The notes: generated from the sequence alone by a model not told the origin. A DNA stretch of 64,000 nucleotides from Candidatus Kerfeldbacteria bacterium (GCA_016207275.1 JACQPY010000018.1:23960-87959), one strand, 5' to 3'. Shown: positions 1,355-56,368, counted from the first letter of the stretch. Program-made: numbers and translations.

Positions 1355-1798
1355 GATTTCCTATGCTCCAAAAACGCCGCAAAGACCGGAACCAGATTCT
1401 CAATCAATGGATAGGAGTGAAAATCCTTGGGCTCGATCCATTGAAATGTATCGTGATCGACGCTCAGCATAACATTGTTAGTCTTGGCCTGACAGACAAA
1501 ATACACGCCAATAATCTGCCACTGTTCGCCATGCACGACTGGTCGCCACCAGGGCGACGTGAAAGGGCTGACCACGTTCGACCGTTAATCCTGTTTCTTC
1601 TCGAATCTCACGCCTCAAGGTTTCGTCAAACCGTTCACCCGGCGCGAGTCGCCCGCCGACCACGTCAAATTTCCCGGCGTTGGTACCGACCGGGTTCGTC
1701 GGCGCTTCTCGGACAATCAAAACTTTCCCTTCAAAGACAATAAAGGCCTTAATGGCGATGCATAACGTAATACCCGATTTCTTCGTCATTCCGGTCAA
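1351..1798 (-). pseudogene. NUDIX hydrolase interrupted by a frameshift (two overlapping ORFs, 1478..1798 and 1351..1575)
   Basis: The Nudix box GGRLAPGERFDETLRREIREETGL lies in the first ORF. The C-terminal part of the fold (WQIIGVYFVCQAK...WIEPKDF) continues in another frame. The frames switch near 1560-1580. Confidence 0.6.
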
Positions 1799-1818
1799 AT
1801 GTCAAACGTCAAATGTCT
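1795..1818. promoter_or_regulatory. Tandem TTGAC/GTCAAATGTCA array directly abutting the NUDIX ATG
   Basis: The plus strand reads gtcaaatgtcaaacgtcaaatgtc, which on the minus strand is TTGACgTTTGACaTTTGACC immediately followed by ATG. The same array recurs at 38225-38250 and 38636-38665. Confidence 0.4.
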
Positions 1819-2208
1819 TATCTGTCCTTCACCCGCCACACAAACTTCAATCCCGACCACGTCTCGTCGATCGCCGCCACTTTTACGTCCACCAAACCAT
1901 GCGCCAGACCAACTTTCATGACCACGTTCTCACGCAAATCCGTTTTCACACCTGACGATTGCTTTGGCCACGACACCCACAGCATGCCTTCTTTCTTCAA
2001 CGATCGCTTGAGCCTCGGAAACGCCGCGCGCAGCTCATGCTCATCCTTGGAAAAATACTGGATGAAGTCACATGAACTGGCTAATTTGTGTGGAAATTTC
2101 ATGCCGAGCAGACGGCGGTATCCTGGTGGCGGCTGTACCACACACGCACGAAAACCAGGCGTGAGGCCCAGCTTATCAGCCAGTTTTTTCTTGGAGTAGC
2201 CCGCCACG

Positions 2209-2222: not shown

Positions 2223-5772
<3,550 letters not shown>

Positions 5773-13862: not shown

Positions 13863-14210
13863 ATGCGCGTCAAACGCGGCATCATCCACAAAAAACACGT
13901 CAAGAACATCCTCAAACATGCTAAAGGCTACCGTTGGCGTCGAAAAACTTCGGTTAAGCTCGCGAAGGTCGCGGTCACCCACGCCGGCTGGAACGCCTAC
14001 AAACACCGCCGAACCAAAAAGCGCGATTTCCGGCGGCTCTGGCAGATCCGGATCAACGCCGGCGCGCGACAGAATGGCATTACCTACTCTCGGCTAATAC
14101 CGTTGCTCAAAGCCAAGAAGATCGAGCTCAACCGAAAGGTTTTAGCCGAACTGGCGGCCAAACACCCTCAGGTCTTTGCCGAGGTCGTCAAGGTCGCGCA
14201 GGCAAAGTGA
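13863..14210 (+). CDS. rplT: 50S ribosomal protein L20
   Basis: MRVKRGIIHKKHVKNILKHAKGYRWRRK...RKVLAELAAKHPQVF matches L20. Confidence 0.95.
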   Translation: MRVKRGIIHKKHVKNILKHAKGYRWRRKTSVKLAKVAVTHAGWNAYKHRRTKKRDFRRLWQIRINAGARQNGITYSRLIPLLKAKKIELNRKVLAELAAKHPQVFAEVVKVAQAK

Positions 14211-14214
14211 AGCT

Positions 14215-14320
14215 CCACGGCCTCACGGCCGTGGTTTCTCTCGATCCGTGGTTCCGTGGAGCGGAACCCCGCACCGTCCCGACCGCACAAGCGCGTCGGG
14301 ACTGGTGCGTGGGTAAAACA
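14215..14320. repeat. Family-2 element copy A (with a conserved upstream hairpin block) between the convergent rplT and PRTase genes
   Basis: ccacggcc..ggccgtgg and ggttccg-tggag-cggaacc are followed by AACCCCGCACC-gtcccgac...gtcgggac-TGGTGCGTGGGTAA. This is near-identical in layout to copy C at 25521-25608. Confidence 0.6.
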
Positions 14321-14980: not shown

Positions 14981-15209
14981 ACCGCCTCCCTGGGGTTCAG
15001 TGGTCGAAAATGCAGACGAGCGATGCTGCGTAGTGCAGCGTTTCGGTTTTGGTTTCCCTCCTGTGGTGGACCAATAAAACACGCGAGGGCGCGGTTGCGC
15101 CCCCAAGGCTTCACTGTCTTCGTTTCTGGTTCCGCTTGATCGGCGGGATCTCCATAGGTATTTAGTAGCATGGCCGCGCTGATCTGACAACCAGGGAGTT
15201 TTCCCCAGG

Positions 15210-15596
15210 CTAGAGCTTACTGCTCGGCGCAGTCATCCGCCGTCGAATGGCCAGGCCGCTCAGCACACCGACCAGGTCAATCGCCGCGTCAACCGGCGCC
15301 CCGTGCCGGCCAGGGACGAAGGTTTGGTGCCATTCATCAATCCCGGCGTAGCCAGCGCTCAGGACCGCGGCCAAGACCACTGCCCGCGCCCGCGGCAGGC
15401 CGCTAACCTCGAACGCCCGAAACATCAGCCCGCCGAGAATGGCATACTCAGCCAGGTGAGCAATCTTCCGTAGGATTATATCCCACAGCGGCAGCAACCC
15501 TGAACGGAGGTCAGGAATCGACGACCAGATAAAAATCACCGTCATCCACCCGCTGACGTAGACCCAGGCCCACAGGCGCTGTTGAGACAAAGTCAT
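15210..15596 (-). CDS. VanZ-like membrane protein
   Basis: 128 aa with 3-4 TM helices and AHLAEYAILGGLMFRAF typical of the VanZ family. Confidence 0.6.
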   Translation of the reverse strand: MTLSQQRLWAWVYVSGWMTVIFIWSSIPDLRSGLLPLWDIILRKIAHLAEYAILGGLMFRAFEVSGLPRARAVVLAAVLSAGYAGIDEWHQTFVPGRHGAPVDAAIDLVGVLSGLAIRRRMTAPSSKL

Positions 15597-20460: not shown

Positions 20461-20692
20461 AAACCGTTATTGATAAAAGTGTTCTTGCATTGCAGGTAGT
20501 GAAAATCCAACTATAATGAGATTGTGTCCCTCAAAATTTACCAGTAATAAAACAATTCTCCTAAATATTCGACTCCCAGCCCACATGCCTCAAATTGCGA
20601 TCTATAAAAAGCACCGAAAAACCCTTATACTGTTTGCATGAAAGTGAAACAAGTCCAAGCTGCTTACTGAAATAATCCCTAACTAACCAAGT

Positions 20693-21721: not shown

Positions 21722-22062
21722 TGGCGCACGCGTACCGCCAGGTCATCATCAGTGCGACGAGCAAGAAGGAAGCTGAATCGCTATCGGCGTTGTTGCTGAA
21801 AAAACGACTCATCGCTGGATCACTCATCATTCACGGACCATCACAGTATTGGTGGCAGCGGAAAATAGTTAAGAAAACTTACTACAATATCCAAGCGTTC
21901 ACTGTCTCCTCAAAGAAAAAGACGATTATCGCACAAGTCAAGCGCTACCACTCCGACAGGGCACCAATCATCGCGTTTGTTCAAATCGACGGAAATACGG
22001 AATTCAAGAAATGGATCGACGAATCCGTGCATAGTCAAACGTCAAATGTCATCCTTCGATAA
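21721..22062 (+). CDS. cutA: CutA1 divalent-cation tolerance protein
   Basis: MAHAYRQVIISATSKKEAESLSALLLKKRLIAGSL...YWWQRKI. The ATG overlaps the DHS stop (ATGA). The longer ORF-track start is rejected. Confidence 0.7.
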   Translation: MAHAYRQVIISATSKKEAESLSALLLKKRLIAGSLIIHGPSQYWWQRKIVKKTYYNIQAFTVSSKKKTIIAQVKRYHSDRAPIIAFVQIDGNTEFKKWIDESVHSQTSNVILR

Positions 22063-22150
22063 TACTCAGGATGACTCCGTACTTCACAGGGAAACAAGAA
22101 ATATGTCCATCAGACAGCGTCTCGGGATGACCCTGAGCGAAGTCGAAGGG
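22028..22150. repeat. Family-3 composite element (GTCAAACGTCAAATGTCA + catcc-hairpin + gaccc-hairpin) spanning the cutA 3' end and the agmatinase 5' end
   Basis: catccttcgataatactcaggatg and cgggATGACCCTGAGCGAAGTCGAAGGGTCAaaagttaaacg. A second copy is at 55375-55600. Confidence 0.55.
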
Positions 22151-23071
22151 TCAAAAGTTAAACGTAGTATTCTCCACGACACCGGCTCCCGCGGCTTCCT
22201 CAACCTGCCTAACCACCGCGACTTCAAGCGCTCGAAAGTCGTAGTCGTGCCGTTCGGTTTGGAAAAATCCGTCACCTTCGGCCATGGAACCTCAAAAGGT
22301 CCGGCCGCCATCATTGCGGCCAGTCACGAAGTCGAACTCTACGACGAACAGTTCAAAAACGAACCGTACAAACGTTACGGCATTGCCACCCTTAAACCAT
22401 TCCCCATACCCCACTCCCATCGTCGTGCACTAGAACTTCTCACCGATCTAACAGCCCGGTTGCTTCGACGTAAAAAATTCCCCATCATCCTCGGCGGCGA
22501 ACACTCGCTGACTGGCGGTTCAGTCGCTGGTATGGCCAAGGTTTTTGGCCGACGCGGTTTTAATATTCTCCACTTTGACGCACACACTGACCTACGACCG
22601 TCGTTTCAAGGCAACAAGCTAAGCCACGCCTCAGCCCTGCACCTGGCTATCCCCTACTTCCACCGTTTGGTTCAAATCGGCATCCGCAATACCTCCACCG
22701 AGGAACAGCCGATCATTCGCCGCTTGACCAAAGCCCGCCGTTTACAAATTTTCACCGCTGAGGACATTCTGCGTGCTAACAACACCGCCTACTTAACCAA
22801 AGCTATGGACTTTCTGCGAGACCGGCCAGTCTGGTTAACCTTTGACGTTGATGTCTTTGATCCGGCCATCATCGGTTCGAGCACTGGCACGCCCGAACCC
22901 GGCGGTTTATGGTGGTACGGCGTGCTTGACGCCCTCCAGGCAGCCACCAAACAACTCGACATTATCGGCGCCGAATTCGTCGAACTTTTGCCAAAACCGG
23001 GCCAGCAAGCGCCGGATTTTATCGTGGCCAAGCTCATCTACCAATTCCTGAATTTCAGGTTCGCGGCTTGA
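22103..23071 (+). CDS. speB: Agmatinase / arginase-family ureohydrolase (start uncertain: 22046, 22103 or 22127)
   Basis: GGEHSLT, HFDAHTDL and DVDVFDPA..TGTPEPGG are the Mn-binding motifs. The N-terminal ~15 codons are encoded by the family-3 repeat. Confidence 0.8.
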   Translation: MSIRQRLGMTLSEVEGSKVKRSILHDTGSRGFLNLPNHRDFKRSKVVVVPFGLEKSVTFGHGTSKGPAAIIAASHEVELYDEQFKNEPYKRYGIATLKPFPIPHSHRRALELLTDLTARLLRRKKFPIILGGEHSLTGGSVAGMAKVFGRRGFNILHFDAHTDLRPSFQGNKLSHASALHLAIPYFHRLVQIGIRNTSTEEQPIIRRLTKARRLQIFTAEDILRANNTAYLTKAMDFLRDRPVWLTFDVDVFDPAIIGSSTGTPEPGGLWWYGVLDALQAATKQLDIIGAEFVELLPKPGQQAPDFIVAKLIYQFLNFRFAA

Positions 23072-23664
23072 TGCGGAAACCGGTTGACGATTTACGAAAG
23101 GACATCGTTTTCTCCGCGCACTTACGCCAACACGAATTCGCGTTCCATTCGACCTGGGGACTCTTCAGTCCGGAGGCGATTGATCCAGGATCTAAACTCC
23201 TGATTGATCACCTCGATGTGCGCCCCAACGATACCGCAATTGATCTCGGATGCGGATACGGGGCAATCGGCATCGCCGTGGCGCGTGAAGCGTCGGCGGG
23301 ATACGTTCACCTTGTTGATAAAGACTTCATCGCGGTTGAATACGCCAAAAAGAACATTGCCGTAAACGGCATCGCCAACGCCACCGCCTACCTAAGCAAT
23401 GGATTCAACGCCATTCCCAAGGATCAGCGGTTCGATCTCATTCTTTCAAATCTTCCAGCCAAGGTCGGTCGAGAACTCTACGATATATTCTTCCTTGATG
23501 CCAAAAACTTCCTCAAACCTGGCGGCCGGATCTACGTCGTCACCATTGCCGGCCTCAAGGAATTCATCAAGAAAAACTTCCACGAAATATTCGGGAATTA
23601 CGACAAAGTAAAACAAAATGGCACGCACGTCGTCGCCCGAGCAGTGAAGCGCTCCCCGAGCTGA
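23068..23664 (+). CDS. Class I SAM-dependent methyltransferase (RsmC/RlmG-like small MTase domain)
   Basis: DLGCGYGAIG is SAM motif I, and NLPAKVG is an NPP-like motif. Confidence 0.65.
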   Translation: MMRKPVDDLRKDIVFSAHLRQHEFAFHSTWGLFSPEAIDPGSKLLIDHLDVRPNDTAIDLGCGYGAIGIAVAREASAGYVHLVDKDFIAVEYAKKNIAVNGIANATAYLSNGFNAIPKDQRFDLILSNLPAKVGRELYDIFFLDAKNFLKPGGRIYVVTIAGLKEFIKKNFHEIFGNYDKVKQNGTHVVARAVKRSPS

Positions 23665-23696
23665 CGCTCGGGGTATCAGTCCTTTCGGGCTTTCGG

Positions 23697-23750
23697 AGCG
23701 CGGAACCCCGCACCCGTCCCGCCAGCGGGCGGGACTGGTGCGTGGGTCAA
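23697..23750. repeat. Family-2 element copy B
   Basis: AACCCCGCACC-cgtcccgcc-agcg-ggcgggac-TGGTGCGTGGGTCA. It marks the left edge of an AT-rich islet. Confidence 0.6.
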
Positions 23751-24263
23751 ACGATCATAATCAGCGTTTGGCCTGTCTCGTCAGGAAACGCAGCTGGCGG
23801 GCCAAGTTCATCTATAAGTTTTTTTGAATTTTTGATTCGGTCGCTGACAGAAATATGTTATTCGCACGGACGGGCTGACCTCCAGTTTTCAGTCATAAAA
23901 TTCCTTAAAATATCAAACTCGCTGCAGGTGAGTCCGGCGTCCTTCCCCCAACCTACTCTGCTACCACCTCCGCCCTCTCCATCAACCACGCCAAAGTCAT
24001 AATTTTTGAGCAATCACCTAAATGTAGCTCTACTTACTAAGTCGAATATTTCTGCATTGTTTCTAAAGGCCTCTAGCAGTTTAAGGTTGATTGTCCCTTC
24101 GGGATAATTAGTTTTTTCTTGAATCATTATCAGCTCAACCGTGGCCATAAGAAAGTCGCTGGAATATTCTCCATATTTATTCAAGTCTTCATACTCTTTT
24201 AGGTTGACTTTGGTGAAGAACTGGAATTCAGGCGGATATTTTTTCGAGGGTTGAATTTTCTGG

Positions 24264-25435: not shown

Positions 25436-25520
25436 TTTGCGCTTGTATGACTCCCTGTTGATATCTTACCCGAAGAAAAACCGAATGTCAATTTATGCGA
25501 AATTGTGAAGCTCCATGTCC

Positions 25521-25608
25521 CCACGGCCGTGGTTTCTCTCGATACGTGGTTCCGTGGAGCGAAACCCCGCATCCGCCCCGAGCAATGTCGAGGGGCTGGT
25601 GCGTGGGT
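25521..25608. repeat. Family-2 element copy C (with the conserved upstream hairpin block)
   Basis: ccacggccgtgg...ggttccgtggagcgaaACCCCGCATC-cgccccgag..tcgaggggc-TGGTGCGTGGGTAA. It marks the right edge of the AT-rich islet. Confidence 0.6.
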
Positions 25609-25684
25609 AAGGATTTACTACTCTATGGTACGAGTTTTCCACACCAAAATCAAGAAAAAATCGCGGAAAGCTACAGACTAGCCA

Positions 25685-37213: not shown

Positions 37214-38011
37214 TCAGTCGAGGCGTGCGCTCTCAGCTTCGAGTGCTGTGTTCAGACGATCGAGCATCGGATCGACTGCTTCACCCATGCCCTGGAACAG
37301 GTCCTCCAACGGACCTTCCTTAGCCAGGGCGCGCAGCATCCGCACCCGCAACGGCCGAGGTTGATGCAGCAGGAGCCGGAGCGAATCGATGTCGCTCATC
37401 GTCCCCAGCATCTCCCGTACGACTTCTTGGTCGCGCGGCTCGAGCGTTGAGAACCACCACGCCACTTCGTGCTGCTCGGCCTCGCTGAGAAGACTGACTG
37501 TCTTGAAGAACGCAGCGGTTTCGTCTGGTTTGGCCTGGGCCCGCTTCCACGTGTCGAGGATGCGAGTCGGGAAACTACGAACGGCGCGGAGCAAACGTTG
37601 ACTGAACTGTTGGACGTTTGCGACCAACGTCTCCCGGATCAGCCCCTCGACGGTCTCACGATTGAGCTCGAGTGGCGTGAAGCCCTCGAAGTCGATCGGA
37701 TGCTCCTTGTTCCGTTCCGTGTAGTAACGCGTCACCGCCCGCGGAACCTGACCGAGAACCTCGGTCTTGGCCCGCTTGAAGGTTGGATTATCACGCACCC
37801 ACGGGATCCGATTGGTGGCGACATCGATGCCGGTGTTGACGGCAGCAGTGAGGAACTCGACCTTGGTTGGTTCCTTGATCGCGTTATAGGCCAGGGTCTT
37901 CCATAGGTCGGGTCTGGTTTCTTCGAGGGTGTCGAGGACCGGTCCGACGAGGATCAGTCGTGTTCCGAGATCCGCGAACCACTCTTTCGTTACTTCCAGA
38001 TGTTCTGGCAT
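37214..38011 (-). CDS. Hypothetical protein (265 aa)
   Basis: Clean ORF with no recognisable motif. Confidence 0.4.
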   Translation of the reverse strand: MPEHLEVTKEWFADLGTRLILVGPVLDTLEETRPDLWKTLAYNAIKEPTKVEFLTAAVNTGIDVATNRIPWVRDNPTFKRAKTEVLGQVPRAVTRYYTERNKEHPIDFEGFTPLELNRETVEGLIRETLVANVQQFSQRLLRAVRSFPTRILDTWKRAQAKPDETAAFFKTVSLLSEAEQHEVAWWFSTLEPRDQEVVREMLGTMSDIDSLRLLLHQPRPLRVRMLRALAKEGPLEDLFQGMGEAVDPMLDRLNTALEAESARLD

Positions 38012-38224
38012 TCCTCAACTCCTTGAGACTCAGGAACGCACGGTGCGTCCTGCGGTTAGGGTGTCGGGTATGTGTCCGTAGATTCTCTACTAACAGTGAT
38101 ATGACTTGGCTGACCAAAAACTGGCCAGCTAGAGTGTTTTTATCGAGCTATCTGCAATCGTTGCAACAGATGCAACGGGTCACCTTACTACATGTTACGG
38201 AAAATGTCAAGGGTTGGGTGGGGA

Positions 38225-38250
38225 CGTTTAACTTTTGACATTTGACGTTT
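38225..38250. repeat. TTGAC x3 array (left flank of the four-helix-bundle gene)
   Basis: tttgacatttgacgtttgacc-ATG. It is inverted relative to the array at 38636-38665. Confidence 0.5.
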
Positions 38251-38259
38251 GACCATGCG

Positions 38260-38643
38260 CTATTCCAGCAGTCTTTTCCTAAATGCTGATAATTGATTTC
38301 CAAGTTCTGCCGCGCTCGACAGTACTTCATCGCGTTCTTGGTGGGTGAGGCAGCCACAATCAACAGCCACATCACAACAGGCAACAACTTCATTCAAAGA
38401 GGCTAGTGCATAATTAAGAAAGAGCGCAAAATCCTTGTCCGAACTTCGATTCGATCCTTCGGCAATGTTGAGGACGATTGAGTTTGCTGCCCGCAGCAAC
38501 TGCGCCGTAAGAATGTATCTCTCACCATCCGGAAATGATCGCGCGTAACGACGAACGTGACTGACAAATTGTCGTGCTAACTGGTAGACGGTGAATTTTC
38601 TAAATCGAAACTTTCTATCGATATCAAATACCATTCTGGTCAA
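38260..38643 (-). CDS. Four-helix-bundle protein (23S rRNA intervening-sequence protein family)
   Basis: YILTAQLLRAANSIVLNIAEG ... LASLNEV is diagnostic for this family. Confidence 0.75.
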   Translation of the reverse strand: MTRMVFDIDRKFRFRKFTVYQLARQFVSHVRRYARSFPDGERYILTAQLLRAANSIVLNIAEGSNRSSDKDFALFLNYALASLNEVVACCDVAVDCGCLTHQERDEVLSSAAELGNQLSAFRKRLLE

Positions 38644-38665
38644 ATGTCAATTGTCAAATGTTATT
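38636..38665. repeat. TTGAC x3 array (right flank of the four-helix-bundle gene)
   Basis: ggtcaaatgtcaattgtcaaatg reads as TTGACAATTGACATTTGACC on the gene strand, directly upstream of the ATG. Confidence 0.5.
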
Positions 38666-39498
38666 TTTTGCCCGTCACTCGTCATCACCACGTCGCCGTC
38701 TTCATCCGTCCGTAACATTTTCGCCCCGCGCTTGTTGTACCGCCGCAGCACTACCGGGTGCGGATGGCCGTAGCGATTGTCCTGGCCCACGGAAATGACT
38801 GCCGCGGCAGGCTTGAGCGCATCTAAAAACTCCTCGCTCGACGACGAAATACTCCCGTGGTGCGGAACTTTCAAAACTTCGACGTCGGGCAACGTGCCGG
38901 TCAGCACCAGCCGCTGCTCAACGTCGGCACTGATGTCGCCGGTCAACAGCACGTCAGTCTCGCCGTACTGGACGTGCAGAACGACCGACGTGTCGTTGCG
39001 CAGTTTGGCATCGGCCGCGACCGCTGTTGGCGGCCACAGCACCTTCAGTGCAACCCCACCGACATCGAGCCGATAATTACCGATTGCTTCCAGGCGTTGC
39101 GCGCGCTGAGCGTCAATGGCGGCTTCCCAGGATCGATCGGCCAAGCTGTCGCTGCGGACCGCCGTTTCCAGAACGCGTTCGATCTTAAAGTGTTCAGCGA
39201 CGGCTGGTAAGCCACCGACGTGGTCTGCGTCAGGGTGGGTCAGGACCACGAGCTCCAGCGTCCGATCAGACGGCGGCAGGTACTCCGACAGTCGCTCAAC
39301 TACGCGTCCATCAGGACCACCATCAACCAGCACATCGCTGCCATCCGGTGTTTGCAGCAAAATGGCATCGCCCTGCCCAACGTCCAGCACCACCATTCGA
39401 AAAGCCGGGTCGGATCGCGGCCCGACCCACAGCGCCAGGGCCAGGGCGCAGGCCACCATCAGGAATGCTACCCGAATGACCAGGTTACGTTGCGACAT
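38647..39498 (-). CDS. comEC: ComEC/Rec2 C-terminal metallo-beta-lactamase domain
   Basis: VLDVGQGDAILL ... LTHPDADHVGG ... PHHGS. It forms a separate ORF with a 14-nt overlap on the upstream ORF. Confidence 0.75.
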   Translation of the reverse strand: MSQRNLVIRVAFLMVACALALALWVGPRSDPAFRMVVLDVGQGDAILLQTPDGSDVLVDGGPDGRVVERLSEYLPPSDRTLELVVLTHPDADHVGGLPAVAEHFKIERVLETAVRSDSLADRSWEAAIDAQRAQRLEAIGNYRLDVGGVALKVLWPPTAVAADAKLRNDTSVVLHVQYGETDVLLTGDISADVEQRLVLTGTLPDVEVLKVPHHGSISSSSEEFLDALKPAAAVISVGQDNRYGHPHPVVLRRYNKRGAKMLRTDEDGDVVMTSDGQKITFDN

Positions 39499-40654
39499 GC
39501 CGCTTCCTCGTTATCGTGACGTACCAACCAATGGCCAGGGCATTGACGGATGCGGCCGCGGCGCTGGCCTGCCAACCGAGCTGAACCGCCGCGATCGGCA
39601 GTGCGGCGCCAAACGTCACCACCCAGACCATCGCCCGCAGCGGTAACCACGCCAGCCAGCCGACCAACACTGCCAGCCACGGCGCCAGAGCGGTCAGCAC
39701 CGCCACCGCAAAGCCGGTCAGCATGGCCGGCGGGATCAAAGGCAGTACCACGACGTTGACTAGGGGTGCTACCAGCGACACCTGCCCGAAGTACAGTAAA
39801 ATCAACGGCTGCGTAAACATGATGGCCGCCAGCGTCGAGGCTAGTGAGCTCCGCAAGCCAAAGACGGTTGACACGAAGGTTAACCGCTGTTCCAACGGTT
39901 CGGCCAGCAGCACCAAAGCGGCAGTCGCCACGACGGACAGCTGAAAGCTCAAGCTCGTGATGATGACTGGCTGGATCACAACCATGCTGGCCGCGCTCAG
40001 GACCAGCAGATGCCAACCGTCAGCCAGCCGACCACTGTACCGCGCCAGCACCACCAGCGATCCCATAATCCCAGCCCGGACAACCGAGGGCGACGCACCG
40101 GTGAGAATGACGAAGGCGGCCACGGCCAGAATCGTGACCAACAACTGCATGGCGCGACCCAACGGCATCGATCTGATGATGGCGGCCACCGCACTGACCA
40201 CGATGGTGACGTTGAAGCCTGAAACTGCCACGATGTGGCTGGTGCCCGTAGTCCGAAAGGCTTGGAGTAAGTTGCGCGGTAGGTCTTCGCGTCCGCCGAG
40301 CAGCAAGCCAGTCAGCAAGGCCGCCTCAGTCGGCGGCAGCGCCTGGTTAATCCCGTGTTCTAACCACGCACGGGTTGCGGTCAGGGCAGCGATAATTGGC
40401 TGCTCATCACTGACTCCCGCTGGCGCACCCAGCAGCCACCCCCGGAGCAATCCGAGACCAAACAGCAACGGCACAAACCACCAGCGCCACCGTGCGGCGA
40501 TGGCCGTGAGTGTTGCTCCGAACACCATCCCCATCGTCGGAACAACAAAACCACCGACCGCTGCGCCAGCGGCCAGCGCCATTGCTCCGACTTGAATCCG
40601 CGTTTTCCGTGGTAACAAAATTGGTGACCAGCGGCCACCGTTTGTCTGGATCAA
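39485..40654 (-). CDS. comEC: ComEC/Rec2 N-terminal competence (TM) domain
   Basis: Multi-TM protein with FRTTGTSHIVAVSGFNVTIV, the competence-domain signature. Confidence 0.75.
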   Translation of the reverse strand: MIQTNGGRWSPILLPRKTRIQVGAMALAAGAAVGGFVVPTMGMVFGATLTAIAARWRWWFVPLLFGLGLLRGWLLGAPAGVSDEQPIIAALTATRAWLEHGINQALPPTEAALLTGLLLGGREDLPRNLLQAFRTTGTSHIVAVSGFNVTIVVSAVAAIIRSMPLGRAMQLLVTILAVAAFVILTGASPSVVRAGIMGSLVVLARYSGRLADGWHLLVLSAASMVVIQPVIITSLSFQLSVVATAALVLLAEPLEQRLTFVSTVFGLRSSLASTLAAIMFTQPLILLYFGQVSLVAPLVNVVVLPLIPPAMLTGFAVAVLTALAPWLAVLVGWLAWLPLRAMVWVVTFGAALPIAAVQLGWQASAAAASVNALAIGWYVTITRKRHVAT

Positions 40655-47095: not shown

Positions 47096-47191
47096 AATTC
47101 CTCCAAAATCTTAATTCACCATCCGTTATTCTATACCCTAATCTCCTAATTCCCTAACCCCTAATCCCTAACAACCTAATTCCCAACAGAC

Positions 47192-55165: not shown

Positions 55166-55374
55166 GGGGTCGCACCGGATTGCCTACATTCGTATTTTCA
55201 ATGTGTGGTTGACGACGAACTAACTACTGATCCCTAACCCCCAAACCCTATCTTGTCACCCAGTACATGAAGGAAAAGACGAACACCGCCGCGGCCATGA
55301 AGAAAATCAACCACAAAAACTGCAGGAGTGTCGACTTTTTTTCGAGTGGATTATGAAACATTGTTTTTGGTTAA

Positions 55375-55600
55375 ACGTTACGAGTCAAATGTTCACTTCG
55401 ATCCTTCGACTTTGCTCATCCTTCGACAATGCTCAGGATGAGTCCCGCCGAATGGGCGACCTTTATGCACGTATCCACAGGATAGCACATCGAATGACTT
55501 GTGACTAGCGACCCGTCACATGTCATCCCTCGACGCTGCTCGGGATGACCCCGAGCGTAGTCGAAGGGTCACAGATCAAATGTCACATGTTCTCAATAAT
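55375..55600. repeat. Family-3 composite element (two catcc-hairpins, one gaccc-hairpin, flanking GTCAAATGT motifs)
   Basis: catccttcgacaatgctcaggatg, catccctcgacgctgctcgggatg and gaccccgagcgtagtcgaagggtc, followed by cacagatcaaatgtcacatg. Confidence 0.55.
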
Positions 55601-56168
55601 CAATCCCCTTGCTGGCAATAATCCCTTGGTAGTATGGATGCTTAACCATCTTCATTTCGGTCACCAAGTCACAACGCTTTAATACAGCTGGGTAGGCGCT
55701 GTGGCCGGTCATGGCCACGTGGACCAGTTTTGCTTTCGGATGCTTAGCTCGTTCGTTGAGCAACTTCGCAATCGCCGACACGGGAAAGAGTTTCTGCTCC
55801 GAGCAAGCAATGATCTCATCGAGTATCACGAGCTTGTACTTTCCTGAAAACAGCAATTGCTTTGCTTCGGCCAACGCGCTGGCTGCAGCTTGCCGGTGCT
55901 GCCGGCGAGATTTTCGGTCGCCTAAAATGCCCACAAACCCTTTGCCGCGGACGCGCACATCAACCCCTAACTTCTTCAACGTCACCCGCTCGCCTGACGG
56001 CCATTGCGCTGACTTGTAAAACTGAAAAAACAGCACGGGCCAGCCGTAGCCCGCAGCTCGCGTGGCCAAACCGACAGCCGCCGTGGTTTTTCCTTTACCA
56101 TCGCCGACGTAGGCAATGGTTAGACCGCGATCAATGGCGCGAAATTGCTTTACGGCTGATCTCTTCAT
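55593..56168 (-). CDS. Cob(I)yrinic acid a,c-diamide / cob(I)alamin adenosyltransferase (BtuR/CobA/CobO family)
   Basis: IAYVGDGKGKTTAAVGLATRAAGYGW is the P-loop region. The start is taken at MKRSAVKQF. The longer ORF-track N-terminus is rejected. Confidence 0.75.
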   Translation of the reverse strand: MKRSAVKQFRAIDRGLTIAYVGDGKGKTTAAVGLATRAAGYGWPVLFFQFYKSAQWPSGERVTLKKLGVDVRVRGKGFVGILGDRKSRRQHRQAAASALAEAKQLLFSGKYKLVILDEIIACSEQKLFPVSAIAKLLNERAKHPKAKLVHVAMTGHSAYPAVLKRCDLVTEMKMVKHPYYQGIIASKGIDY

Positions 56169-56187
56169 AGAGTACTGCGCCGACGCA

Positions 56188-56236
56188 TGCCCCGTACCGG
56201 ACTCCGAGCGAAGTCGAGGAGGACTGGTGCGGGGTA
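56188..56236. repeat. Family-2 element immediately upstream of the adenosyltransferase gene
   Basis: CCCCGTACC-ggactccgagcgaagtcgaggaggac-TGGTGCGGGGTAGG, with a TTCG core like the tRNA-Asp and prfB copies. Confidence 0.55.
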
Positions 56237-56239
56237 GGC

Positions 56240-56293
56240 AATGATCAGGCCGCGATCGATCGCCCGAAATTTTTTTGGAGCAGATTTTTTCAT
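56240..56293 (-). other. Diverged duplicate of the adenosyltransferase 5' end
   Basis: Minus strand reads ATGAAAAAATCTGCTCCAAAAAAATTTCGGGCGATCGATCGCGGCCTGATCATTGCCTAC. The real start is ATGAAGAGATCAGCCGTAAAGCAATTTCGCGCCATTGATCGCGGTCTAACCATTGCCTAC. Confidence 0.55.
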
Positions 56294-56368
56294 GATTCAC
56301 GTAATCAGCGCGGCATTCGCCGCGCTCATTAGTTTACCGTACTACCAGTCAATCAACAATCGCCACCG

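Follow-up and report, generated by a model that had tools for sequence, protein, structure and literature searches.

The segment at 38225-38665 of the window (the window being the whole 64-kb stretch of Candidatus Kerfeldbacteria DNA that was analysed) is probably a single genetic unit, namely a selfish cassette of the intervening-sequence (IVS) type, sitting within a CPR protein-coding operon and outside rRNA. It holds one gene, encoding a four-helix-bundle (4HB) protein, between two inverted arrays of 7-nt repeats. An earlier, preliminary description of this DNA had pointed out a 4HB gene between inverted TTGAC arrays, and the sequence is as described there, with the ORF matching PF05635 at 99.6 bits (cut-off 33.8) and TIGR02436 at 98.3 bits (cut-off 24). 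The locus adds a new member to a known protein family, and its architecture is of a known type. What appears to be undescribed is the make-up of the arms as heptamer arrays, the generality of such arms and the solo arms found elsewhere. Most relatives of the gene also lie between paired inverted heptamer arrays, within and outside rRNA, and in uncultured as well as cultured bacteria.

Architecture of the cassette

The features of the locus are the following:

38225..38665, minus strand: whole cassette (5' arm, 4HB ORF and 3' arm), 441 bp
38638..38664, minus strand: 5' arm, ATAACAT TTGACAA TTGACAT TTGACC, followed by AGA and then by the ATG at 38634-38632
38260..38634, minus strand: 4HB protein gene, 124 aa, without a Shine-Dalgarno sequence
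38228..38257, minus strand: 3' arm, on the gene strand CAT GGTCAAA CGTCAAA TGTCAAA AGTTAA, its CAT pairing with the start codon

Each flanking array consists of four 7-nt units of the form TTGACNN, and the two are mutually inverted, the 5' and 3' arms being identical at 24 of 27 positions when one is inverted (z=11.6 vs shuffles). The 4HB ORF ends with TAG at 38260, followed by CGCAT and then by the 3' arm at 38254-38228. The motif TTGACNNTTGAC occurs seven times in the 64-kb window, where 0.08 occurrences are expected, and the three-unit pattern with up to two mismatches occurs eight times against an expected 0.10, so that the flanking arrays are not a product of chance. The complete cassette is present in the window as one copy only.

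Both arrays had been said to abut start codons, which is correct for the right one, where AGA and then ATG follow, but not for the left one. On the plus strand the left array (38228-38254) reads TTAACTT TTGACAT TTGACGT TTGACC and runs into an ATG at 38255-38257, yet this ATG is nothing more than the 4HB start codon's complement within the inverted repeat, and the ORF that it opens has just 13 codons, overlapping the 3' end of the 4HB gene in antisense. At the cassette, therefore, only the right array abuts a true start.

The GC content of the cassette is about 45% (0.43–0.50 across measurements), compared with about 60–61% in the flanks and the genome. Its neighbours are ComEC and a hypothetical protein. 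Upstream, on the minus strand, is the ComEC metallo-beta-lactamase-domain ORF (38647-39498), whose tail, made up of the last five codons and the TGA stop (ITFDN*), falls within the 5' arm; downstream is a 265-aa gene, the product of which had no homologue besides itself among 5.8 billion proteins. Reading by eye, no target-site duplication or direct repeat was seen outside the arms at the cassette ends. There is no rRNA at the cassette, and Rfam matches in the whole window consist of one tmRNA and one tRNA. Since a position in rRNA is the defining criterion of an IVS, the cassette is referred to here as IVS-type and not as an IVS.

Predicted fold and expression

The MFE and centroid folds both pair 38638-38664 with 38228-38257, giving a stem of ~27 bp around the entire ORF. 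In the predicted fold the gene-strand CAU is base-paired to the true AUG, with the 3 nt AGA bulged out, meaning that the inverted repeat includes the 4HB start codon. The stability of the whole-cassette fold does not differ significantly from that of shuffled sequences (z=-1.6), and it is the terminal stem alone that stands out. Among the arm mismatches, G.U pairs are not enriched in sense over antisense (42 and 45, p=0.83), and hence there is no specific sign that pairing was selected in sense RNA rather than in DNA.

TTGACA is the sigma-70 -35 consensus, and the arrays could for this reason be taken as iterated promoter hexamers, a view that the preliminary description had itself set aside. 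There is, however, no -10 partner at 16–18 nt, the array ends 3 nt before the ATG, the heptamers of relatives are entirely different (CTACGGT, ATGGCNN, GTAGGGA, TAACTAA), and a scan of 37900-39000 gave no sigma-70-type promoter. Promoter arrays are very improbable on these grounds and were rejected. No terminator was found at the cassette or between it and ComEC either, the sole terminator-like match in 37900-39000 being inside the ComEC metallo-beta-lactamase ORF.

From this arrangement we infer that the cassette is co-transcribed, cleaved and translated, and that its stem serves in excision or regulation. The cassette would have no promoter of its own and would depend on read-through transcription of the host operon, in which ComEC is followed by 4HB and then by the 265-aa gene. 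Its terminal stem may insulate it and may be a substrate of RNase III, an enzyme specific for double strands; such cutting is known for rRNA IVSs and is proposed by analogy for the cassette here. Cleavage of the stem would then free a nearly leaderless 4HB mRNA, to be translated without a Shine-Dalgarno sequence. Among relatives, an SD-like motif or tetramer lies upstream of the gene in only six of 77 cassettes.

Comparison with rRNA intervening sequences

The nearest known system is the rRNA IVS carrying an S23p/IVP ORF, as in Leptospira, Coxiella burnetii, Xanthomonas/Brucella and the insertions in CPR 16S and 23S rRNA. The two share the protein family, arms of ~27–28 bp enclosing the ORF, a weak or absent SD and a GC content below that of the host. 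They are also alike in size, with 441 bp here and 428–444 nt in the Coxiella IVS, whose 28-bp terminal stem is a target of RNase III; its S23p ORF has a poor SD and its GC content is below that of the genome (PMC4990558). IVP ORFs have been found in insertions of both 16S and 23S rRNA in CPR bacteria (PMC11270868). The present cassette differs in lying between protein-coding genes and not in an rRNA helix, although one relative, at locus L192, is in 16S rRNA, and neither the heptamer make-up of the arms nor solo arms occur in the IVS literature examined.

The 4HB protein

Among the uncharacterised small proteins of Bacteroidota, Cyanobacteria, Chloroflexota and CPR, those of PF05635/TIGR02436 are some of the commoner ones. 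To our knowledge, they have been met in two capacities only, as rRNA IVS passengers and as relatives of Avd, a retroelement factor. The 124-aa protein encoded here has the family core motif LNIAEG...R..D.DF, with N-E in the next helix, and the invariant columns of a 35-sequence alignment include Q45, N56-I57-A58-E59-G60, R63, D66, D68, F69, N81 and E82. Its closest solved structure, from a sequence match alone, is PDB 2GSC, the pentameric XCC0516 (E=9e-13), and a homopentameric toroid of four-helix bundles, characteristic of the family, is presumed for it. NCBI has a protein of 100% identity, on a 126-kb contig, under the name 'four helix bundle protein [Candidatus Kerfeldbacteria bacterium]'. 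Exact-sequence look-ups with the protein gave no match, and a look-up of its neighbours returned the same locus only, from two sequencing runs. The source is a groundwater community (runs SRR12113385 and SRR12113390). No 4HB relatives were found on viral contigs.

In close pairs of 4HB relatives dN/dS is 0.07–0.18, so that the protein is made and is constrained by purifying selection. Identity with the DGR protein Avd was considered and rejected, as the DivGenRetAVD model gives 17.8 bits, far short of its cut-off (80), and no reverse transcriptase (RVT) is found among the neighbouring genes. Avd nevertheless resembles the 4HB protein in having a homologous pentameric four-helix-bundle fold, and it acts on structured RNA beside its own gene, its target including a duplex of the avd 3' end with downstream RNA. 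In addition to the score and the reverse transcriptase, the cassette differs from a DGR in having no template/variable repeat pair.

Inverted heptamer arms across the family

The arrays had been proposed to be terminal inverted repeats of a small 4HB cassette akin to rRNA IVSs, a proposal that the relatives bear out. From 80 metagenomic loci with 4HB relatives at 37–59% identity, 67 non-redundant cassettes had enough flank for analysis. Inverted arms were present at z>=5 in 44 of the 67 and at z>=3 in 56, whereas the same test applied to control genes in the same loci gave 4/92. The median arm is 27.5 nt long, has 84% identity to its partner and lies ~10 nt (median) from the start and stop codons.

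The 7-nt period is just as general. Autocorrelation of the 60-nt flanks peaks at lag 7, with 0.45 upstream and 0.43 downstream against ~0.28 at other lags, and peaks again at lag 14, while the interior of the ORF is flat. The best repeat lag is 7 in 45 of the 67 cassettes and 8 in a further 12. In 350 kb of sequence 122 period-7 arrays were counted, compared with two in shuffled sequence, and 67 of the 122 lie within 100 nt of an end of a 4HB ORF, a zone that by our own estimate takes up ~5% of the sequence. Arm identity is 85% in register and 67–70% when shifted by 7 nt, a comparison that carries some selection bias; the in-register excess favours true pairing or a recent inverted duplication.

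The type of heptamer, on the other hand, is not conserved in the family. The closest relatives have TTGAC and TTAAC types, and others have TAACTAA/TAACTGA, CTACNGT, CTACGGT, CCTTAAT, GAAACAN, ATGGCNN, GCAGCTT or GTAGGGA. Similarity of the arms in 5-mers is 0.35 at protein identities of at least 60% and falls to 0.10 below 40% (Spearman 0.40). This rise of arm similarity with protein identity means that gene and arms evolve as one unit, and not that the gene has landed in unrelated, pre-existing hairpins. The covariation of arms and protein, together with the relative inside a 16S rRNA gene, gives further backing to a cassette related to the IVSs.

Possible recognition of the arms by the 4HB protein

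A plain stem leaves the tandem heptamers, with their particular conserved positions, unexplained. Differences between adjacent units cluster at particular positions of the heptamer (z=14), which suggests that each heptamer is perhaps read by something sequence-specific. The 4HB protein, presumably a pentamer, would be the obvious candidate for this reader, since Avd, a homologue, binds RNA stem-loops as part of the DGR ribonucleoprotein, and by the same analogy the pentamer is likely to be a nucleic-acid binder, its own arms being a possible target. Such a reader could also be a regulator with the array as its binding site, the other possibility raised in the preliminary description.

That the heptamers are binding sites of the pentameric protein, with four to six repeats per arm and in RNA or in DNA, is possible but can be put forward only tentatively. 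It is compatible with a selfish IVS-type cassette, and such binding would serve autoregulation, RNP formation or mobilisation, the arrays then being there for the protein and not just to form a stem. Apart from the concentration of differences at certain positions, it agrees with the length of the arms (mostly 4–6 units), with the way in which heptamer type tracks protein similarity, with the homopentameric state of 2GSC, the nearest structure (PMC4990558), and with the binding of RNA stem-loops by Avd (bioRxiv 10.1101/2023.10.23.563531). Common descent, however, explains the covariation of heptamer and protein equally well, the contacts of Avd with nucleic acid have been published as mainly electrostatic, and in one Ignavibacteria cassette the TTGAC-type arms are turned the other way round with respect to the gene.

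Genomic settings of the relatives

The cassette at L192 interrupts a 16S rRNA gene, reading in the same direction as that gene, and seems to replace a hairpin tip between GCAAGTCGAGCG and GGCGAACG, taken from the sequence to be helix 6. For five cassettes (L143, L180, L185, L187 and L189) a same-strand tRNA gene is no more than ~100 nt away, and the one at L198 is flanked on both sides by same-strand tRNAs according to the Rfam scan, the only method used for this locus. Co-orientation with neighbouring genes is in modest excess, at 92% against a local baseline of 82%.

The layout of gene and inverted arms extends to loci from Chloroflexota and Ignavibacteria, and to plasmids of cultured bacteria, namely Nostoc edaphicum, Anabaena sp. 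90, Geminocystis, Stanieria, Azospirillum lipoferum and Riemerella. In Nostoc edaphicum the arms are (GTAGGGA)n upstream and (TCCCTAC)n downstream. The layout is less pronounced in Nostoc PCC 7120, N. punctiforme and A. variabilis, and among 12 plasmid copies that of Calothrix PCC 7716 has no arrays and that of Gemmatirosa has arrays which are direct and not inverted. The copies of Nostoc sp. PCC 7120 are at pCC7120alpha 3776-4126 and gamma 15088-15438, that of N. punctiforme is on pNPUN02, and the Azospirillum strain is A. lipoferum 4B.

With regard to movement, pairs of 4HB genes at 100% identity share identical flanks and so represent the same locus, and L184 and L188 are orthologous loci; neither case gives a sign of recent movement. 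Some 4HB ORFs at 78% nucleotide identity do lie in unrelated flanks, which is weak evidence for recent mobility. The arms could also be the TIRs of a MITE- or foldback-type DNA transposon with its transposase encoded elsewhere and the 4HB gene a mere passenger. Inverted ends, low GC, dispersed, near-identical copies of the arms (90–97% identity) and the ORFs in unrelated flanks would all agree with such an element, and GxxExxY genes, a second small family, are likewise found between inverted repeats. Foldback elements, too, have ends made of short tandem repeats, and MITEs, REP/BIMEs and foldback transposons are in general short, non-autonomous units with inverted ends that are able to fold back. 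The cassette differs from all of these in carrying a conserved protein gene, in the lack of a target-site duplication visible by eye at its ends, and in having ends that vary among genomes, so that no single transposase could serve all of the cassettes. No linked transposase gene was present in the loci examined, and a passenger would neither co-vary with the ends across phyla nor be almost their sole cargo. A transposon of this kind is accordingly quite unlikely.

The GxxExxY (TIGR04256) genes, of 126 and 140 aa, occur in the same CPR contigs as 4HB relatives and resemble them as small genes between inverted short-repeat arms. They belong to a different protein family, their repeat period is ~11 rather than 7 in the L179 case, and the window contained no such mini-cassette as far as it was examined.

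Solo arms and hairpin modules in the window

Arrays without a 4HB gene occur at three further sites in the window, one of them holding two degenerate arrays:

1793..1819, minus strand: solo copy of the 5' arm, AAGACAT TTGACGT TTGACAT TTGACC GGA ATG, repeat family D5
22030..22051, plus strand: solo 3' arm, first part, CAT AGTCAAACGTCAAATGTCA, after a CutA-like gene
22052..22153, plus strand: hairpin-module insertion of 102 nt, the 'family-3' element of the preliminary description, splitting the solo 3' arm
22154..22165, plus strand: solo 3' arm, second part, AAAGTTAAACGT, beyond the hairpin module
55363..55392, minus strand: degenerate array, TTTGACT CGTAACG TTTAACC, family D5, 8 nt upstream of the ATG of a 37-aa ORF
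55570..55592, minus strand: degenerate array, ACATGTGAC ATTTGAT CTGTGACC, next to the same hairpin modules and immediately past the stop codon of ORF 55593-56300

The array reported to sit directly against the NUDIX ATG is indeed there, and it fills the 28-nt gap between the stop (1818-1820) of the upstream ORF (1818-2222) and that ATG (1787-1789). Over 30 nt the 4HB 5'-arm copy (38632-38661) and the reference copy at 1787-1816 have 90% identity, and the D5 match between the 4HB arm and the NUDIX copy takes in the tail CC(A/G)GAATG.

Arrays had also been placed inside the family-3 elements. The arrays at 22030 and at 55363 and 55570 are real, but they are split by hairpin modules or adjoin them, and the relation is the reverse of the one described. 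The solo 3' arm at 22030 is 96% complementary to 38236-38258, and excision of 22052-22153 in silico restores an identity of 34/36 to 38224-38259, with TGAC duplicated at both junctions of the 102-nt module. The restored identity indicates that family-3 elements are insertions into an array and not carriers of one. Related hairpin modules (repeat families D7 and D10) are found at 55416-55552, between the degenerate arrays at 55363-55392 and 55570-55592. The 37-aa ORF downstream of the former is hydrophobic and spans 55248-55361.

The solo arms at the NUDIX start, at 22030 and at 55363 are probably dispersed derivatives of cassettes of the kind seen at 38225-38665, and two of these arms now provide an SD-less region immediately before the start codon of another gene. 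Three of the five arrays in the window, those of the 4HB gene, the NUDIX gene and the 37-aa ORF, face a start codon 3–8 nt away with no SD between. This placement could instead mean that the arrays have nothing to do with the 4HB gene and are regulatory elements of the host, acting before starts in SD-independent translation or as sites for a regulator, like the TAACTGA repeats of Beggiatoaceae, for which exactly such a placement has been reported (MacGregor, 2015; PMC4679880), and TAACTGA/TAACTAA-type arms do flank the 4HB genes at L199 and L179. The other two arrays of the window (38228-38257 and 22030-22051), however, face away from any gene start, and inverted pairing around the gene is specific to the 4HB family, control genes having it in only 4/92 cases. 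Proximity to start codons is also weak for TTGAC arrays in other phyla, with 32 forward and 19 reverse of 144, and is thus not clearly a property of such arrays. Host regulatory elements are an unlikely explanation.

The TAACTGA repeats, which occur in Beggiatoaceae, Cyanobacteria and Bacteroidetes, are nonetheless similar to the present arrays in several ways. They too are tandem 7-nt units in intergenic sets of 2–6; like three of the five arrays here, they often end a few nt before a start codon that lacks an RBS; they have a patchy distribution among phyla that suggests horizontal spread, and they have no known protein partner. The differences are that the unit here is TTGACNN and that the arrays here form inverted pairs around one gene family.

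TTGAC arrays in other genomes

A scan of species-representative genomes with TTGACNTTTGACNTTTGACC gave at least 120 stretches, where ~17 chance matches would be expected by our own estimate from the length of the pattern and the size of the collection. Among the matches listed, most are (CTTTGAC)n and similar simple repeats from other phyla, with TTGAC-type arrays frequent in Bacteroidota, Acidobacteriota, Cyanobacteria, Chloroflexota and Planctomycetota. A 4HB gene accompanies four of the 120 listed, in each case no more than 610 nt from the array. Most TTGAC-type arrays among the matches listed are therefore not beside a 4HB gene, and arrays outnumber cassettes.

Wider implications

Taken together, the 4HB genes and the heptamer arrays could form one widespread selfish module, in which the pentamer would recognise its own 7-nt repeats and which would have spread into rRNA hairpin loops, tRNA operons and mRNAs. 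Bacterial heptamer repeats that have gone unexplained (the cyanobacterial STRR, TAACTGA and (CTTTGAC)n) would then stem in large part from decayed or solo arms of this module, some of them reused as SD-independent leaders. This wider scheme is conceivable but doubtful. If true, it would provide the IVS protein family with a function for the first time, and the heptamer repeats with the protein partner that they lack. Two puzzles, an uncharacterised 4HB family and repeats with no partner, become a single testable system now that the gene is seen so regularly between inverted heptamer arrays. Cyanobacterial STRR heptamers were reportedly described by Mazel et al. in 1990. Heptamer tandem repeats in bacteria have been catalogued since at least 2007 (Mrazek et al., as cited in PMC4679880), with no partner protein proposed. 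MacGregor put forward an unknown binding protein as a possible mobile agent of the TAACTGA repeats, and the text of that paper contains no mention of 'S23', 'intervening' or 'helix bundle' (MacGregor, 2015; PMC4679880). A search that covered few subscription journals found no paper tying heptamer repeats to the PF05635/TIGR02436 family. The cultured carriers (Nostoc PCC 7120, Azospirillum and Riemerella) make the arms, transcripts and protein open to experiment.

Effects on annotation

The arrays also affect how the surrounding sequence is annotated. They create spurious ORF extensions, seen in the ITFDN* tail of ComEC and in the tail of the CutA-like gene. '23S rRNA IVP' has been listed among the domains linked to CRISPR arrays (PMC10910872), and heptamer arrays of the kind found here may prompt false associations with CRISPR arrays.

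Arms and cargo of the mini-cassettes

One difference between two orthologous metagenomic loci, L184 and L188, which are 91% identical, is an indel situated exactly at an arm of the cassette that carries the four-helix-bundle (4HB) gene, with a 1.1-kb segment in one locus, holding a 336-aa ORF, replacing the 3' arm of the cassette (L184 2861–3980 versus L188 2866–2924). The 4HB gene is not the sole cargo of such cassettes; GxxExxY genes are a second cargo for mini-cassettes of this kind, with inverted short-repeat arms found on both sides of GxxExxY proteins (TIGR04256, 107 and 101 bits) adjoining 4HB cassettes:

L163 1119–1511, GxxExxY mini-cassette
L179 1064–1510, GxxExxY mini-cassette, the same as that at L194 2038–2484

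Inverted heptamer arrays also commonly occur as pairs that enclose no ORF, forming bare hairpins, in the CPR contigs that carry 4HB cassettes, and their heptamers are unlike those of the local cassette in the following:

L132 4104–4233, bare hairpin
L164 4515–4631, bare hairpin
L170 4516–4600, bare hairpin
L173 1377–1441 and 4740–4830, bare hairpins
L199 4131–4245, bare hairpin

Structured RNAs, introns and CRISPR loci

One 4HB cassette lies within a 16S rRNA gene, close to the gene's 5' end (L192 1103–2595), and another (L201) is followed ∼80 nt downstream by a group I intron (2936–3149), with a LOOT RNA farther along (4183–4301). On the Anabaena sp. 90 plasmid pANA02 (L203, 43677–45203), a 4HB gene and ∼300 nt of GGTGACA/GGGAACA heptamers are present between cas6 and cas4. 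The domains associated with CRISPR arrays include "23S rRNA IVP" (PMC10910872); heptamer arrays might be taken for CRISPR arrays, or the association might be real.

Reading frames in the window

ComEC is divided between two overlapping ORFs, and the 265-aa protein encoded downstream of it (37214–38011) matched only itself in a collection of 5.8 billion proteins. The NUDIX ORF ends after 106 aa, and a typical NUDIX C-terminal segment (KTNNVMLSVDHDTFQWIEPKDF...) runs on beyond its stop in a different frame; either the gene is frameshifted or a pseudogene, or the assembly is in error at this point.

1355–1789, minus strand, NUDIX ORF
38647–40654, minus strand, ComEC (Competence domain 39485–40654, MBL domain 38647–39498)

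Other repeats and hairpin modules in the window

A GC-rich repeat family of 74 nt + 23 nt, whose three copies share 65–96% identity, has no relation to the heptamer arrays:

14207–14319, 23646–23752 and 25505–25613, GC-rich repeats

A second heptamer family, CCCTAAN (TTAGGGN on the opposite strand), occurs at 47130–47190 and 20673–20690; one copy is ∼45 nt upstream of the start of a minus-strand gene with a normal GGAGG, and the other abuts the ATG (20693) of a deoxyhypusine-synthase-like gene. The isoleucyl-tRNA synthetase ORF contains a period-7 stretch at 3049–3073 (CAACCGA CAACCGA TAACTGA TAAC), translated as a SYQLSV-type insert, which is possibly a heptamer array taken up into coding sequence.

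Hairpin modules are also present:

22052–22153, 102-nt insertion module within a heptamer array; its junctions show a TGAC duplication
55416–55445 and 55523–55583, related modules

Two short hairpins, both GC-rich (GTCATCC...GGATGAC and TGACCCT...AGGGTCA), make up the 102-nt module. Its ATG-containing end lengthens the annotated N-terminus (MTLSEVEGS...) of the agmatinase-like ORF downstream.
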